A stretch of 38,845 bases of DNA from a bacterium (GCA_021780305.1 JAJXYZ010000042.1:1-38845); one strand, 5' to 3'; counted from the stretch's first letter, positions 4,623 to 9,842 are shown. Program-made: numbers and translations. Notes: generated from the sequence alone by a model not told the origin.

Positions 4623-4676
4623 GATTGATTGATGTTACTCGGCAAGTGGAATATAGTGATACGTAAGGGAGTCGTT

Positions 4677-5327
4677 ATGAGTACCCCGGATCAAAAGCAA
4701 CTCGATTCATTCTTTAGAAAGTATCCGATACGGCATTTTGATAAAGGCCAGATTATCATAGCGACTAATGAAACTCCACCAGGAATCTTTTATGTAGTAA
4801 GCGGACAGGTAAGACAGTATGATATCACGGATCTAGGTGTTGATATCGTGCTAGATGTCCTGCTTGATTCATCAGTCTTTCCATTAGAGTGGGCGGTGCG
4901 AGATGTTAACACTCAATACTTTTATCAAGCGATTAGTCCGGTTGAGGTTCGGCTTGCTCCACTTAACGAGTTGCAAAATTTTCTAAAACAGTCTCCAAGG
5001 CTAGTCTACAGTATGTTAAATCGTTCGGTGGCTGCCATGACGATTATGCAGCGTCGGATGGCTCATTTAATGAGCGGCGTAACCTATAACCGAGTAATGT
5101 TTGAATTAATTGCGCAGGCCAAGCGTCTGGGCATTAAGCAGACTGATGGATCTTATCTATTGAATATGCATGAGGATGAGTTGGCGCAACGGGCGGGCTT
5201 AACGCGTGAAACAGTTAATCGTGAGGTTGGAAAGTTAAAACGGTTAGGTTTGGTTGAGGTCAATCATCGTCGAATTAGTATTAAAAATTTAGATAAACTC
5301 GAATCACTACTAGGTGATCATCTCTAA
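4677..5327 (+). CDS. Crp/Fnr-family transcriptional regulator (paralogue 1)
   Basis: N-terminal cNMP-binding-like beta-roll and a C-terminal HTH 'EDELAQRAGLTRETVNREVGKLKRLGLVEV'. Start moved to ATG 4677 because AAGGGAG lies 6 nt upstream; the track start is 4629. Confidence 0.8.
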   Translation: MSTPDQKQLDSFFRKYPIRHFDKGQIIIATNETPPGIFYVVSGQVRQYDITDLGVDIVLDVLLDSSVFPLEWAVRDVNTQYFYQAISPVEVRLAPLNELQNFLKQSPRLVYSMLNRSVAAMTIMQRRMAHLMSGVTYNRVMFELIAQAKRLGIKQTDGSYLLNMHEDELAQRAGLTRETVNREVGKLKRLGLVEVNHRRISIKNLDKLESLLGDHL

Positions 5328-6818: not shown

Positions 6819-6885
6819 GTCGATTTATTGTTTTTAGTAGAATTTATTATGTATTTTTGGTATTAGTCTGTCATAATTAAAACAT

Positions 6886-7485
6886 ATGAGAATCTGGCAA
6901 ACATCCCAAAAGCGATTAGGCCTCGCTTTGACAATTTTTTCAATTATCGGCCTAATTGCATCTTTCGTTTTAACATACGATACGATTGAGAAAATAAAAA
7001 ATCCAAGCTTTAACCCTACGTGCAACATCAGTCCGATTATTAGTTGCGGAAAGGCGATGACATCGCTTCAAGGCGAATTATTTGGCATACCAAACCCAGT
7101 TTATGGAATTATGGCATTCACTGCTTTGTTGGCGTTTTCGGTGACACTTTTGGCGGGAGCGCGGTATAAGCGTTGGCTGTGGTTGACTGCAGAATTTGTG
7201 GCACTAACTGGTGTGATTTTTGTGCACTATCTATTTTATGTCAGTATGGTTGAGTTGGGTTCGATATGCCCATGGTGTTCGCTTGTATGGGTGACGACAA
7301 TTGCCATATTTTGGTATTTAACTACGCACTTGGTGGCAACCGGTATGTTGTCATGGCAGACAAAGTCTAATCGGATTGCTAACTTTTGGAAAACCTATTC
7401 AGCACCAGTTTTAGTTTTATGGTATTTAGTCTTGATTGTGATTGTTTTTTTAAGATTCAGTAGCTACTGGCTATCCTTGATATGA
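6886..7485 (+). CDS. Vitamin K epoxide reductase (VKOR) family membrane protein
   Basis: 199 aa. Has a loop Cys pair 'PTCNISPIISC' and a TM-embedded CxxC 'CPWC' in a multi-TM scaffold, which is the VKOR signature. Confidence 0.8.
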   Translation: MRIWQTSQKRLGLALTIFSIIGLIASFVLTYDTIEKIKNPSFNPTCNISPIISCGKAMTSLQGELFGIPNPVYGIMAFTALLAFSVTLLAGARYKRWLWLTAEFVALTGVIFVHYLFYVSMVELGSICPWCSLVWVTTIAIFWYLTTHLVATGMLSWQTKSNRIANFWKTYSAPVLVLWYLVLIVIVFLRFSSYWLSLI

Positions 7486-8621
7486 TAAGGCGAGTAATTT
7501 GGCGGATTGTCAGGTTTGGTTATGTTTATCTAATCAAGCCCCTCTTATTTATGATGTCGCCAGATAATGTCCATAGCCATACGATTAGTCAAATGTCTTT
7601 TTGGCAGAATGTACCAGGTTTTACGGCTTTAGTTAGACTGGTTTTTCAACAATCTTCATGCTCTGCCTTAAAACAGCAGTACCATAACGTGACATTCAAT
7701 AGTCCGGTCGGTTTATCGGCTGGATTTGATAAGAACGGTGAAATTATGCCAATTATTGCTAGCCTTGGGTTTAGCTTTGGTGAAGTTGGGTCTGTTACGG
7801 CTGATTCGTGTGAGGGTAATATTCGGCCATGGTTCTATCGATTACCTAAGACCAGATCACTCGTCGTCAATGCTGGGCTTAATAATCATGGGTCTGAGGC
7901 GATTATTAAGCGTCTTGCCAATTACTCAGATTCAGATTTAAGGGAATTTCCGATAATTCTATCAGTCGCAAAGACTAATAGCCAGAAAGTTATAAGTATT
8001 GAGCAAGGTATTAACGATTACGTGACAACAGCTCGTCGTGCCAAAAATCAGCCTAATATTAAAATGATCGAACTGAATATTTCGTGTCCAAATGCTTATG
8101 GCGGCGAAGATTTTACTAAGCCTGATGGCCTAGAACTTTTACTTACAGCGATTGATTCAATTAATTTAAAACAACCAGTATTTGTCAAAATGCCAGTTAA
8201 TCTGGATTTGTTAAAAGCCAAAGATTTACTAGATGTAATCGTAGGTCATAAGATAGCCGGCGTAACAATCGCCAACCTAGCAAAAAATCGGACTACTGCA
8301 AATCTAAAAGATGATCTGCCGTTATCGGTTGTTGGTAATTTAAGTGGCGAGCCGACTCGAGACTTAAGCAACGAGCTGATTAGGAGGACGTTTTTAGAAT
8401 ACGGCAAACGCTTAACTATCATTGGCGTAGGTGGTATATTTTCGGCAGATGACGCCTACGAGAAAATAAAATTAGGAGCCAGCCTAGTAGAATTGATTAC
8501 CGGTATGATTTTTGAAGGTCCACAGTTACCGTCACAAATCGAGGATGGTCTAAGAAGACGACTGCAAACCGACGGGTTTAATCACATCAGTCAAGCTATC
8601 GGTATTGATGCTAAACAATAA
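7482..8621 (+). CDS. pyrD: Dihydroorotate dehydrogenase-like flavoenzyme (class-2-type N-terminus, Cys catalytic base)
   Basis: Aligns by eye with E. coli PyrD: 'LIKPLLFMMSPDNVHSHT', 'GLSAGFDKNGE', 'GSVT', 'NAGLNNHG', 'ELNISCPN', 'GVGGI'. The start overlaps the VKOR stop (ATGA). Confidence 0.8.
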   Translation: MIRRVIWRIVRFGYVYLIKPLLFMMSPDNVHSHTISQMSFWQNVPGFTALVRLVFQQSSCSALKQQYHNVTFNSPVGLSAGFDKNGEIMPIIASLGFSFGEVGSVTADSCEGNIRPWFYRLPKTRSLVVNAGLNNHGSEAIIKRLANYSDSDLREFPIILSVAKTNSQKVISIEQGINDYVTTARRAKNQPNIKMIELNISCPNAYGGEDFTKPDGLELLLTAIDSINLKQPVFVKMPVNLDLLKAKDLLDVIVGHKIAGVTIANLAKNRTTANLKDDLPLSVVGNLSGEPTRDLSNELIRRTFLEYGKRLTIIGVGGIFSADDAYEKIKLGASLVELITGMIFEGPQLPSQIEDGLRRRLQTDGFNHISQAIGIDAKQ

Positions 8622-8678: not shown

Positions 8679-9296
8679 ATGCACGAAAAAATACAGAAGT
8701 TTTTTGAAGAGTTTGCTACTGAAGAATATCAAAAAGGCGAGATGATAATTTTTGCTAATATGAATCTTAAGTCAGTTTATTATATTGAATCTGGTACGGT
8801 TATTGAATACGACATTGCCCCAAGTGGTACGCGTGCTATCCTAAACACATTTAAACCACATGCCTTTTTTCCAATATCTAACGCTATAAATGAGATTGAC
8901 ACACCGTATTTCTATGAGGCGAGTGGCCCAGTTACGGTTAGAAAAGCTCCCGCCTTAGCTGTAGTTGAGTTTATAAAGAAGAATCCAGACGTTGCCTATG
9001 ATCTGCTTCGGCGAATTTACAGAGGTACGGATGGAGTTTTGGCGCGTCTGTCGGAGATGATGCGGGGTGATGCTGAAAGCCGTGTCTTAAAAGAAATAGA
9101 TATTATCAAGAAGCGGTTTGGTTTTGAGGTTGTTGATAATGGTGCTGAGCAATTAATTAAAAAGGTACCTGAAAAGGAATTGGCCGAACGAACGGGTTTG
9201 GCGCGCGAAACTGTCAGCCGAGCGATAAAAAAGTTGAAAACATCGGGTCAGCTTAAGATTCAAAAAGGCTATATTATTATAAGCAATTCAAAGTAA
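8679..9296 (+). CDS. Crp/Fnr-family transcriptional regulator (paralogue 2)
   Basis: Same domain order as paralogue 1. Shares 'YFYEASGPVTVRKAP' (compare 'YFYQAISPVEVRLAP') and the HTH 'EKELAERTGLARETVSRAIKKLK'. Confidence 0.8.
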   Translation: MHEKIQKFFEEFATEEYQKGEMIIFANMNLKSVYYIESGTVIEYDIAPSGTRAILNTFKPHAFFPISNAINEIDTPYFYEASGPVTVRKAPALAVVEFIKKNPDVAYDLLRRIYRGTDGVLARLSEMMRGDAESRVLKEIDIIKKRFGFEVVDNGAEQLIKKVPEKELAERTGLARETVSRAIKKLKTSGQLKIQKGYIIISNSK

Positions 9297-9344: not shown

Positions 9345-9842
9345 ATGACATACGATGAAATTGTACGAATTATTGCCGATGGAGCTTTGGCGCCAGTTAT
9401 CTTAATTGGCTCTTATATGTTAATTTTTAAAATTCCAAAGGGGCAGCGATTCCAGGCTTACTGTCGAATTTTGTTAGCCGGTCTGACGGCTTATCTGCTG
9501 GCTAAATTAGCCGCAACCGTATATCAACCAGATATAGCACGACCTTTTGAGTTGCTCGGTCAACATGCTGGCGCTTTATTTTTGAATAATCCCGGGTTTC
9601 CATCTGATCATACCTTGTTTGCCACTGCGATAACCTGCGCTGTTTGGTTTGAGACCAAAAACCGCTCGGTTAGTTTGTTGCTTGCGGGATTGGTTGTATT
9701 AATATCGATTGGTCGTGTTTTGGCGCTTGTCCATACGCCTATAGACGTTATATTTGGTATTATTTTCGGGCTAGTCGGATCGCTTTGGTACTTTAATTCC
9801 AGACCGGCTGTCTATAAAAGTACGTCATCTTTGCAGAAATAA
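9345..9842 (+). CDS. PAP2-superfamily lipid phosphatase (BcrC/PgpB-like)
   Basis: 165-aa membrane protein with PAP2 motifs: 'ARP' (C1-like), 'PSDHT' (C2) and 'GRVLALVHTPIDV' (C3, SRxxxxxHxxxD-like). Confidence 0.7.
   Translation: MTYDEIVRIIADGALAPVILIGSYMLIFKIPKGQRFQAYCRILLAGLTAYLLAKLAATVYQPDIARPFELLGQHAGALFLNNPGFPSDHTLFATAITCAVWFETKNRSVSLLLAGLVVLISIGRVLALVHTPIDVIFGIIFGLVGSLWYFNSRPAVYKSTSSLQK

Follow-up and report, generated by a model that had tools for sequence, protein, structure and literature searches.

Background and description of the locus

VKOR proteins take electrons from cysteine pairs of exported proteins and pass them to quinone, and canonical VKOR and canonical class-2 dihydroorotate dehydrogenase (DHODH, or PyrD) both act as quinone reducers. 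Bacteria of the Candidate Phyla Radiation (CPR) and archaea of the DPANN group are thought to be without respiratory chains, quinone synthesis and nucleotide synthesis, and many of them keep a VKOR together with an orphan 'quinone-dependent DHODH', which annotation pipelines label a pyrimidine enzyme. Here we describe a bacterial locus in which genes for these two proteins overlap, found in a stretch of 38,845 nt (JAJXYZ010000042.1, assembly GCA_021780305.1); this whole stretch is called the window, its genome is labelled G000, and coordinates given without a contig or locus name are positions in the window. The same two proteins are linked again in other genomes, both as operons and as one-protein fusions, and we lean slightly towards reading them as a functional module that would share a quinone and would not serve de novo pyrimidine biosynthesis. 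The repeated coupling and fusion points to a testable account of how disulfide-bond electrons are disposed of and what the orphan DHODH is for. All of our functional statements are inferred from sequence.

The known partners of bacterial VKOR are thioredoxin-like and lie on the outside, as in the Synechococcus VKOR-thioredoxin fusion, Mycobacterium tuberculosis VKOR and Actinomyces oris VKOR-MdbA. The window VKOR resembles these systems in its fold, its loop cysteine pair, its CXXC motif and, presumably, its extracytoplasmic transfer of electrons from thiols to quinone, but its partner would be a cytoplasmic-face flavoenzyme on the acceptor (quinone) side. The anaerobic E. coli route from DsbB through menaquinone to fumarate reductase offers a functional analogy only: disulfide electrons leave via a quinone to a cytoplasmic-face reductase, but the proteins are unrelated, DsbB not being a VKOR and FrdABCD not having a DHODH fold. 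In CPR, VKOR has been discussed near MdbA-like proteins, and only as their re-oxidant (PMC6744442).

Class-2 PyrD enzymes (E. coli 1F76, M. tuberculosis 8OFW, human 1D3G/1D3H) share with the second protein of the window the full-length fold, the N-terminal quinone helices and the residues of the flavin mononucleotide (FMN) and quinone sites. They differ in that the window enzyme has a cysteine base, a changed pocket and loop, and a coupling or fusion to VKOR, and in that its carriers mostly lack the pyrimidine pathway. Three defining features of PyrD are not found in the window enzyme or its genome: the serine base, the complete orotate-ligand set and the accompanying pathway. In the public record the enzyme is named 'quinone-dependent dihydroorotate dehydrogenase'. 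Class-1A and class-1B DHODHs (Lactococcus lactis PyrDA and PyrDB, and the Trypanosoma cruzi enzyme) have the same cysteine acid/base and the same N-I-S-C-P-N motif, but they have no N-terminal quinone domain and keep the Asn67 and Ser/Thr ring ligands that the window enzyme has lost.

A cysteine on a class-II scaffold is already known from anaerobic and facultative fungi, in Ura9 of Anaeromyces robustus, Schizosaccharomyces japonicus and Dekkera bruxellensis (Bouwknegt et al. 2021, PMC8520639). These enzymes use an acceptor other than the respiratory quinone pool, with free FMN or flavin adenine dinucleotide (FAD) serving ArUra9 and fumarase mutations having been selected for DbUra9, which shows that the class-2 scaffold can function independently of respiration and hand electrons to acceptors other than quinone (PMC8520639). 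The window enzyme is like them in scaffold, in the cysteine at the base position and in a life without respiration, but the fungal enzymes are eukaryotic, are proven to support pyrimidine prototrophy, have no VKOR link, and in some cases have a shortened N-terminus and a cytosolic location. The genomic context, in which pyrC, pyrE and pyrF are missing, speaks against a fungal-type role in pyrimidine prototrophy here. Our literature search returned no paper linking VKOR and DHODH in prokaryotes, the matches concerning only mammalian ferroptosis, nor did searches on DHODH in Saccharibacteria, CPR, Patescibacteria or DPANN turn up anything that bears on prokaryotes.

The VKOR-DHODH operon

The window is contig C13 of an 81-contig assembly (737 kb, 82% complete, 3.5% contamination), and the closest named homologues of its DHODH-like protein are from Candidatus Saccharibacteria. 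The features of the locus are as follows.

6872..6877, + strand: CATAAT, a -10-like box 8 nt 5' of the VKOR ATG, read from the sequence and weak, resting on consensus only
6886..7485, + strand: VKOR, 199 aa (PF07884; cysteines and hydrophobic segments read from the sequence)
7482..7485, + strand: ATGA stop/start overlap (VKOR stop TGA at 7483-7485, DHODH start ATG at 7482-7484)
7482..8621, + strand: DHODH-like FMN enzyme with class-2 fold and cysteine base, 379 aa, type II (Pfam, NCBIfam, phmmer, BLASTP, fold and residue typing)
7482..7646, + strand: N-terminal helical domain, residues 1-55, equivalent to the class-2 quinone tunnel (model helices and column counts)
7866..7868, + strand: codon of V129, which aligns with E. 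coli N111 and T. cruzi N67
8085..8087, + strand: codon TGT of Cys202, at the catalytic-base position of E. coli Ser175 (sequence, phmmer, BLASTP)
8277..8279, + strand: codon of L266, which aligns with T247 in the NTT motif of E. coli PyrD, with N265 retained

An initial reading of the window, made from the sequence only, had claimed that VKOR ends and DHODH begins within a shared ATGA at 7482-7485, and the sequence bears this out. Only six codons, none of them a start, separate the upstream in-frame stop from the DHODH ATG, and the clade-conserved residues Y14, K19, P20 and F23 precede the next methionine, so we regard the start at 7482 as secure. We saw a Shine-Dalgarno sequence before neither the VKOR start nor the DHODH start in the window. 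A pattern scan for promoters and terminators, which is uninformative as to the operon, gave no better plus-strand promoter than CATAAT. Together, the CATAAT box and the missing Shine-Dalgarno sequences suggest a two-gene transcript, possibly leaderless, with translational coupling.

The VKOR domain is clear (PF07884, E 3e-39, 134.5 bits, covering 2-132 of the 134 profile positions) and has the complete catalytic set of four cysteines: the loop pair C46 and C54, and a CXXC (C128-P-W-C131) at the start of the fourth transmembrane helix (TM4). The protein also has an additional C-terminal hydrophobic helix.

Recurrence of the VKOR link in other genomes

We compared 81 genomes of the order Saccharimonadales, of which five carry an enzyme of the window's kind (type II or III, as defined below): G000, G050, G019, G028 and G022. 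Most of these are incomplete metagenome-assembled genomes, and the absences that we report rest on profile or tblastn searches. G000 is 82% complete, as noted, and G050 is a complete single contig of 764 kb; for 22 further carriers from CPR and DPANN the completeness is unknown. VKOR was found in 49 of the 81 genomes and in four of the five enzyme carriers, G022 being without any.

The pairing of the two genes is kept in near relatives. The operon and its full neighbourhood are syntenic in loci L046 and L180, whose DHODHs are 71-75% identical to that of the window, in the conserved order Crp, PspC, LiaF-like, VKOR, DHODH, Crp, PAP2, membrane protein, RmuC, MIP, and L180 has the same 4-nt ATGA overlap between VKOR and DHODH. 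The pairing also recurs elsewhere. In G028 the order is reversed, with the DHODH gene preceding VKOR, again with an ATGA overlap and here with an AAGGAG Shine-Dalgarno sequence before the VKOR start. The VKORs of the window and of G028 are not sisters in the VKOR tree, which indicates that these two operons arose separately.

Outside the order, the two proteins occur as VKOR::DHODH fusions that carry both Pfam domains in one protein. For fusion P0135, both domains were present in 119 of the 120 listed proteins (query included), and the named sources include Levybacteria and Roizmanbacteria. When we took the 150 best-scoring cluster representatives at 50% identity, ten were VKOR::DHODH fusions and one was a PAP2 fusion. 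Most of the VKOR fusions are type III, in the clade with Y84, while P0137 is type II and sits elsewhere in the DHODH tree; these two separate places of the fused DHODH parts imply at least two fusion events. The trees and gene orders point to at least four independent linkage events: a pair of operons that differ in gene order, and two or more lineages of fusions.

Across 68 aligned fusions, neither the four VKOR cysteines nor S-C-P-N shows any variation. For one fusion, AlphaFold gave a model with a predicted local distance difference test (pLDDT) score of 92.5, a predicted template modelling (pTM) score of 0.90 and four VKOR helices, and its DHODH part matches class-2 structures with template modelling (TM) scores of 0.93-0.94 when normalised to target length. 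In this model TM4 runs almost directly into the first DHODH helix, which would place the flavin domain on the cytoplasmic side. None of the three VKOR::DHODH fusions whose neighbours we inspected has pyrimidine genes nearby; the recurring neighbours are a P-type ATPase, a Crp regulator, a polysaccharide deacetylase and, near two of them, a cytoplasmic MsrA. In DPANN archaea we saw no VKOR link, though the enzyme family is present there.

We also noted a P-type cation ATPase and/or a polysaccharide deacetylase within a few kb of the DHODH-like gene in loci L129, L130, L131, L047, L048, L181 and L182; these neighbours are common to Saccharibacteria and the fusion-bearing CPR contigs.

The possibility that a special VKOR paralogue is dedicated to the DHODH was ruled out: in the VKOR tree, a quick one for which several rows were only partly extracted, the window VKOR groups with ordinary Saccharimonadales VKORs, and so does that of G028. 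As a separate observation, two VKOR genes are present in three of the four VKOR-positive carriers (G019, G028 and G050), compared with 9 of the 45 other VKOR-positive genomes, and the second copies sit in separate VKOR subclades.

Fold and class of the DHODH-like enzyme

The second gene encodes a DHO_dh TIM-barrel FMN domain (PF01180, E 4e-60, spanning 2-291 of the 291 profile positions). Its scores exceed the cut-offs of two NCBIfam class-2 quinone models, NF003652 with 288.5 bits (cut-off 267) and TIGR01036 with 235.4 bits (cut-off 200); the best-scoring model, NF003651, gives 345 bits and lies under its cut-off of 448. Class-1 models are far under their cut-offs (PRK07259, 92.5 bits against 269; PRK02506, 72 against 301; TIGR01037, 71 against 270). 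No PyrK-type FAD/[2Fe-2S] gene adjoins the DHODH in the window, where alone we looked for it.

The AlphaFold model of the window enzyme, built on 50 clade members, has a pLDDT of 96.3 and a pTM of 0.94, with N-terminal helices at residues 2-22, 27-41 and 45-55. Foldseek gave full-length matches to human, M. tuberculosis (8OFW) and E. coli class-2 DHODHs with TM-scores of 0.86-0.93. The sequence-only reading had aligned the protein along E. coli PyrD, N-terminal quinone helices included, and had placed the cysteine of N-I-S-C-P-N at the catalytic base. BLASTP against E. coli PyrD (MG1655) reproduces that alignment, starting at residue 14 of the one and 2 of the other, with 32% identity over 354 columns and Cys202 on Ser175, and phmmer against the PDB places Cys202 on the serine of the M. 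tuberculosis and rat NVSSPN motifs. With phmmer, BLASTP and the fold matches in agreement, a misplaced cysteine produced by faulty alignment is ruled out, and the description of the window enzyme as a class-2 scaffold with a class-1 cysteine is correct.

That earlier description nevertheless has to be widened in two respects. The enzyme does not stand alone as a hybrid but is one of a very large CPR/DPANN clade, and the catalytic cysteine is not its only departure from class 2, since two orotate-ring ligands differ too.

Active-site pocket and enzyme types

In class-1B enzymes N-I-S-C-P-N is followed by a glycine-rich loop. Column comparison, BLASTP and a local-pair alignment agree that two orotate-ring ligands are replaced in the window enzyme, E. 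coli N111 by V129 and T247 by L266. Other pocket changes are T178 to A205 and Y318 to I339, and the active-site loop reads PN-x-x-GG-x-x-F, as in class 1B, where E. coli PyrD has PN-TPGLR-x-LQ. By contrast, E. coli K66, N172, N177, N246 and K217 are retained, and within the clade of the window enzyme K84 (E. coli K66), N199, S201, N204, K236 and N265 (E. coli N246) are conserved. Among the quinone-site residues, R120 (E. coli R102) does not vary, and H31 (E. coli H19), Y14 and F23 each reach 95% conservation or more in the clade, so coupling to quinone has probably been retained.

In T. cruzi DHODH, Asn67 makes two hydrogen bonds, to orotate N1-H and C2=O, and is the strongest single contributor to binding, while Asn194 recognises N3-H and C4=O and Lys43 is the carboxylate ligand (PMC4427443). 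By this comparison the window enzyme keeps the ligands for the carboxylate and for C4=O/N3 as well as the acid/base, with the reader of the ureido edge now hydrophobic. Because two ring ligands are replaced, dihydroorotate is doubtful as the substrate, and the pocket would fit a substrate that is not, or not only, dihydroorotate/orotate. In the local-pair alignment the Asn and the Ser/Thr are kept by all of the order's class-1-like DHODHs from pyr clusters, by E. coli PyrD, by the serine-type enzyme of G018 and by a type-I enzyme; among the sequences compared, their loss is limited to types II and III.

These types come from a column-by-column comparison, which split the cysteine-bearing sequences into three. 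Type I has a canonical pocket (K84, N129-R-M-G, N-T, Y339), and among named genomes it was seen in Polyangia, Bacteroidota and Fodinibius. Type II, which includes the window protein, has K84, V129, S161, T165-N166, a G-G-x-x-F loop after P-N, L266, K268 and I339. Type III has Y84 together with a lysine at position 131 (V-N-K-G-F). For enzymology, the family is of value in joining a class-2 scaffold, a cysteine base and lost ureido-edge ligands, with one subclade in which an active-site lysine appears to have moved.

With regard to that subclade, the otherwise universal active-site lysine (G-F-D-K) is tyrosine in type III and a new lysine stands in the V-N-K-G-F loop, the two states co-varying across the clade; in the fusion alignment the positions are Y222 and K269 of P0286, equivalent to window residues K84 and A131. 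A catalytic or charge-bearing lysine thus appears, from the alignment, to have been relocated within the active site.

Distribution and phylogeny of the enzyme family

We found N-[IV]-S-C-P-N in 119 of the 120 closest homologues of the window enzyme. Among the best 150 cluster representatives at 50% identity, which reach down to about 32% identity, 133 have cysteine and 10 have serine. A one-off hybrid is ruled out by these counts, taking the motif as N-[IVL]-S-C-P-N. Named CPR sources of types II and III are Saccharibacteria, Andersenbacteria, Parcubacteria, Berkelbacteria and Minisyncoccia, and named DPANN sources are Woesearchaeota, Pacearchaeota and Nanoarchaeota.

The tree (FastTree, 219 sequences) is a quick one, with the order's own class-1-like DHODHs as the outgroup. 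In it the serine-type enzymes form a clade (66 leaves, support 94) that is nested with type I (95 leaves, support 83), both arising from within a grade formed by the CPR/DPANN types II and III, where type III is a clade of 32 leaves with support 98. Under this rooting the CPR/DPANN family is a grade that gave rise to the serine-type class-2 enzymes, and cysteine would tentatively be the ancestral state on the class-2 scaffold, the root being placed on long branches.

Cysteine enzymes of types II and III at six DPANN loci (L054, L057, L061, L063, L067, L071) are interleaved in the tree with CPR sequences, which implies transfer between these two sets of ultra-small symbionts. Three class-2 DHODHs of Bacteroidota (L089, L099, L126) lie within the serine-type clade and read N-V-S-C-P-N in an otherwise canonical pocket; by their position in the tree these are apparently independent serine-to-cysteine changes in free-living bacteria.

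Pyrimidine pathway in the carriers

No other pyrimidine gene had been seen in the window in the initial reading, and the same holds for the whole assembly: with E. coli proteins as tblastn queries, pyrB, pyrC, pyrE and pyrF were not found in the window or elsewhere in G000, nor in the complete genome G050. Profile searches of G000 gave no orotidine 5'-monophosphate (OMP) decarboxylase, no dihydroorotase and no orotate phosphoribosyltransferase above noise. Dihydroorotase was found in none of the five Saccharimonadales carriers, and only G022 and G028 among them have pyrE and pyrF. In the 22 further CPR/DPANN carriers, dihydroorotase was found in two, of which one bears the label Methanosarcinales, and eight have an OMP-decarboxylase-family gene, giving 2/27 and 10/27 for all carriers pooled. 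Genomes with a type-I enzyme, by comparison, have dihydroorotase in 3/3.

The order itself provides an internal control. G018, alone among the sampled genomes, has a serine-type class-2 DHODH (NVASPN), with pyrC immediately upstream, and also has pyrE, pyrF, a haem-copper oxidase and UbiA-family genes. Saccharimonadales with pyr clusters use yet another DHODH, of about 365 aa and class-1-like (NLSCPN), located between pyrF and pyrC.

We noted such class-1-like DHODHs at loci L015-L025 (genomes G039, G007, G023, G015, G069, G063, G065, G060, G027, G037 and G032), most of which adjoin an OMP-decarboxylase-family reading frame, a dihydroorotase-like one, or both, and in which PF01180 scores only about 65-80 bits. 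Judging from these loci, de novo pyrimidine synthesis seems to be partly retained in the lineages concerned, where it would use a divergent DHODH.

These results bear on the alternative that we take most seriously, although we consider it rather unlikely: that the window enzyme is an ordinary quinone-dependent DHODH acting on dihydroorotate, perhaps host-derived, for the synthesis or exchange of uridine monophosphate (UMP), with the cysteine merely a CPR/DPANN or ancestral state, and with VKOR next to it only through a common need of scarce quinone and similar expression. The two class-2 equivalog cut-offs passed, the full class-2 fold and the conservation of K84, N199, S201, N204, K236 and N265 are what such an enzyme would be expected to have, the fungal class-II enzymes with cysteine are genuine DHODs (PMC8520639), and pyrE and pyrF in G022 and G028, as well as OMP-decarboxylase-family matches in 8/22 other carriers, also speak for it. 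However, 25 of the 27 carriers have no dihydroorotase match and 17 of the 27 no OMP-decarboxylase-family match, a complete genome having neither; valine replaces the asparagine of the strongest orotate-ring contact and leucine the neighbouring threonine; relatives with pyr clusters use another DHODH type; and two fused quinone reducers would be without an obvious sink in oxidase-free genomes. As for annotation, 'PyrD' calls in CPR/DPANN probably overstate their capacity for pyrimidine biosynthesis.

Quinone and respiratory context

Haem-copper oxidase was found in none of the five Saccharimonadales carriers, compared with 34 of the 76 other genomes of the order; by a hand calculation the association between absence of this oxidase (COX1) and carriage of the enzyme has p ~0.06, which is only suggestive. 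Cytochrome bd subunit I was found only in G000 among the five, as a fragment (C2:3-893, - strand) that covers the first 287 profile positions and is cut by the contig end; the composition and neighbouring genes of contig C2 look native. In G050, G019, G028 and G022 we found no quinol oxidase of either the bd or the haem-copper kind. G000 also has an NDH-2-like flavoprotein (C14:705-1901, + strand; Pfam Pyr_redox_2) with 30% identity to E. coli Ndh over 363 residues. A UbiA/MenA-type prenyltransferase was not found in G000, G050 or G028, and tblastn of G050 gave no ndh, cyd, sdh or frd and no other recognisable quinone enzyme.

The sequence-only reading had proposed that the two enzymes share an electron carrier in an organism likely to be without a full respiratory chain. 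The initial interpretation as a whole is supported in part. For G000 its second part has to be corrected by the NDH-2-like gene and the cytochrome bd fragment; the sharing of a carrier stays a proposal. From these two genes, G000 would have a minimal route from NADH through quinone to O2, which VKOR and the flavoenzyme could share.

Less likely still than an ordinary DHODH, in our view, is that the enzyme serves as an electron-input dehydrogenase, passing electrons from a carboxylate other than dihydroorotate to quinone and so feeding O2 scavenging by cytochrome bd or an antioxidant quinol, with VKOR as a parallel, co-regulated reducer. The conserved quinone tunnel, the cytochrome bd fragment and NDH-2 of G000, the Crp-family regulators that flank the operon and precede the fusion in L131, and the cytoplasmic MsrA near two fusions are all in keeping with it. 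Yet bd and haem-copper oxidases are absent from 4/5 Saccharimonadales carriers, G050 shows no other quinone enzyme, and parallel reducers offer little reason for translational coupling or fusion.

Proposed function

In the reading that we slightly favour, a shared-quinone module outside pyrimidine synthesis, the two genes would form a translationally coupled operon for two membrane-associated enzymes that act on the same, probably scavenged, membrane quinone. VKOR, facing outward, would pass electrons from cysteine pairs of exported proteins to the quinone. The flavoenzyme, on the cytoplasmic face, would belong to a CPR/DPANN-specific family that is not part of the pyrimidine pathway, having retained FMN binding, the carboxylate-binding lysine and the catalytic cysteine and having lost the ligands for the ureido edge of orotate, in genomes without dihydroorotase; it would exchange electrons with the quinone that VKOR reduces.

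The direction of this exchange we can propose only tentatively. Since both canonical enzymes reduce quinone, linking them as a pathway requires that one of them run in the opposite direction, and the textbook direction for both is hard to explain given repeated coupling and fusion, mostly no quinol oxidase and no supply of dihydroorotate. In cells without a quinol oxidase the flavoenzyme might most plausibly act as a quinol drain, re-oxidising quinol at the quinone tunnel and passing the electrons via FMN and Cys202 to a small cytoplasmic carboxylate acceptor, fumarate-like in nature. Class-1A DHODs with a cysteine base reduce fumarate at the same site, and by analogy the flavoenzyme as the other end of a quinone cycle is the simplest model that is chemically coherent, though we would not call it probable. 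The outcome would be a respiration-independent route for disulfide-bond formation. In G000 in particular, cytochrome bd oxidase and NDH-2 may share the same quinone pool. A fuller version of this proposal, in which VKOR and the flavoenzyme are a self-contained, respiration-independent CPR disulfide machine and the flavoenzyme is a quinol:enoate reductase (not acting on orotate) and an early-branching class-2 relative with the ancestral cysteine, is in our opinion possible but doubtful as a whole.

Several observations weigh against the shared-quinone module or against the quinol drain within it. VKOR is independent of the enzyme, as only 5/81 genomes carry the enzyme and 49/81 carry VKOR; 27 VKOR-positive genomes have neither the enzyme nor haem-copper oxidase, and the carrier G022 has the enzyme with no VKOR. 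The operon was not found where DHODH identity falls to 59-64%, nor in G050 or G019, and unfused carriers are mostly without the adjacency (G050, G019, L047, L048, L181, L182), and at the 20 unfused CPR/DPANN carrier loci we found no VKOR within 6 kb. With its cytochrome bd and NDH-2, G000 could do without a dedicated quinol drain. Transfer from quinol to FMN would need a raised flavin potential, being thermodynamically uphill at the values typical of DHODHs. A tblastn search of G000 and G050 with E. coli queries, of low sensitivity at this distance, gave no fumarase, aspartase, adenylosuccinate lyase or Frd/Sdh. Scavenging of the quinone has to be assumed, because no prenyltransferase for quinone biosynthesis was found in G000, G050 or G028. 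The AlphaFold pTM of the fusion is no proof of a functional interface. Finally, incompleteness of the metagenome-assembled genomes weakens any single absence, though not the overall pattern nor the result for G050.

The weakest alternative, that the adjacency arose by accident in the gene order of one lineage with a compact genome and that the fusions elsewhere provide a membrane anchor only, is very unlikely, because although the adjacency is lost where the DHODH is 64% identical or less, a PAP2::DHODH fusion demonstrates that other membrane proteins can be the N-terminal partner, and 4-nt overlaps are common in small genomes, the accident would have to have happened in two opposite-order operons and in two or more fusion lineages, with invariant VKOR catalytic cysteines in 68 fusions and with ten VKOR fusions to one PAP2 fusion in the 150 representatives.

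Neighbouring genes and other observations

As regards possible thiol partners for VKOR in the shared-quinone module, crude scans of G000 for a CXXC pattern with a hydrophobic N-terminus gave no membrane-anchored DsbA/MdbA-like CXXC protein. G000 has a type IV pilin-like protein that contains cysteine residues (C33:3201-4394). In G050 the sole DsbA-family reading frame (479149-479781) is apparently cytosolic, with A-C-P-W-C near its N-terminus.

Regulators of the Crp/Fnr family lie on both sides of the VKOR-DHODH operon, at 4629-5327 and 8679-9296, and both are kept in the syntenic loci L046 and L180. On an unrelated CPR contig, a Crp-family regulator (L131:7264-7887) is directly upstream of a VKOR::DHODH fusion. 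These flanking genes may place the VKOR-DHODH module under redox or oxygen control.

Two genes downstream of the operon, at 9345-9842, is a gene for a PAP2 phosphatase, also kept in L046 and L180. Other N- or C-terminal partners of the enzyme occur in the PAP2::DHODH-like fusion P0133 (550 aa) and the DHODH-like::cytidylyltransferase fusion P0127 (497 aa), which, together with the PAP2 neighbour, hint at a lipid or membrane connection.

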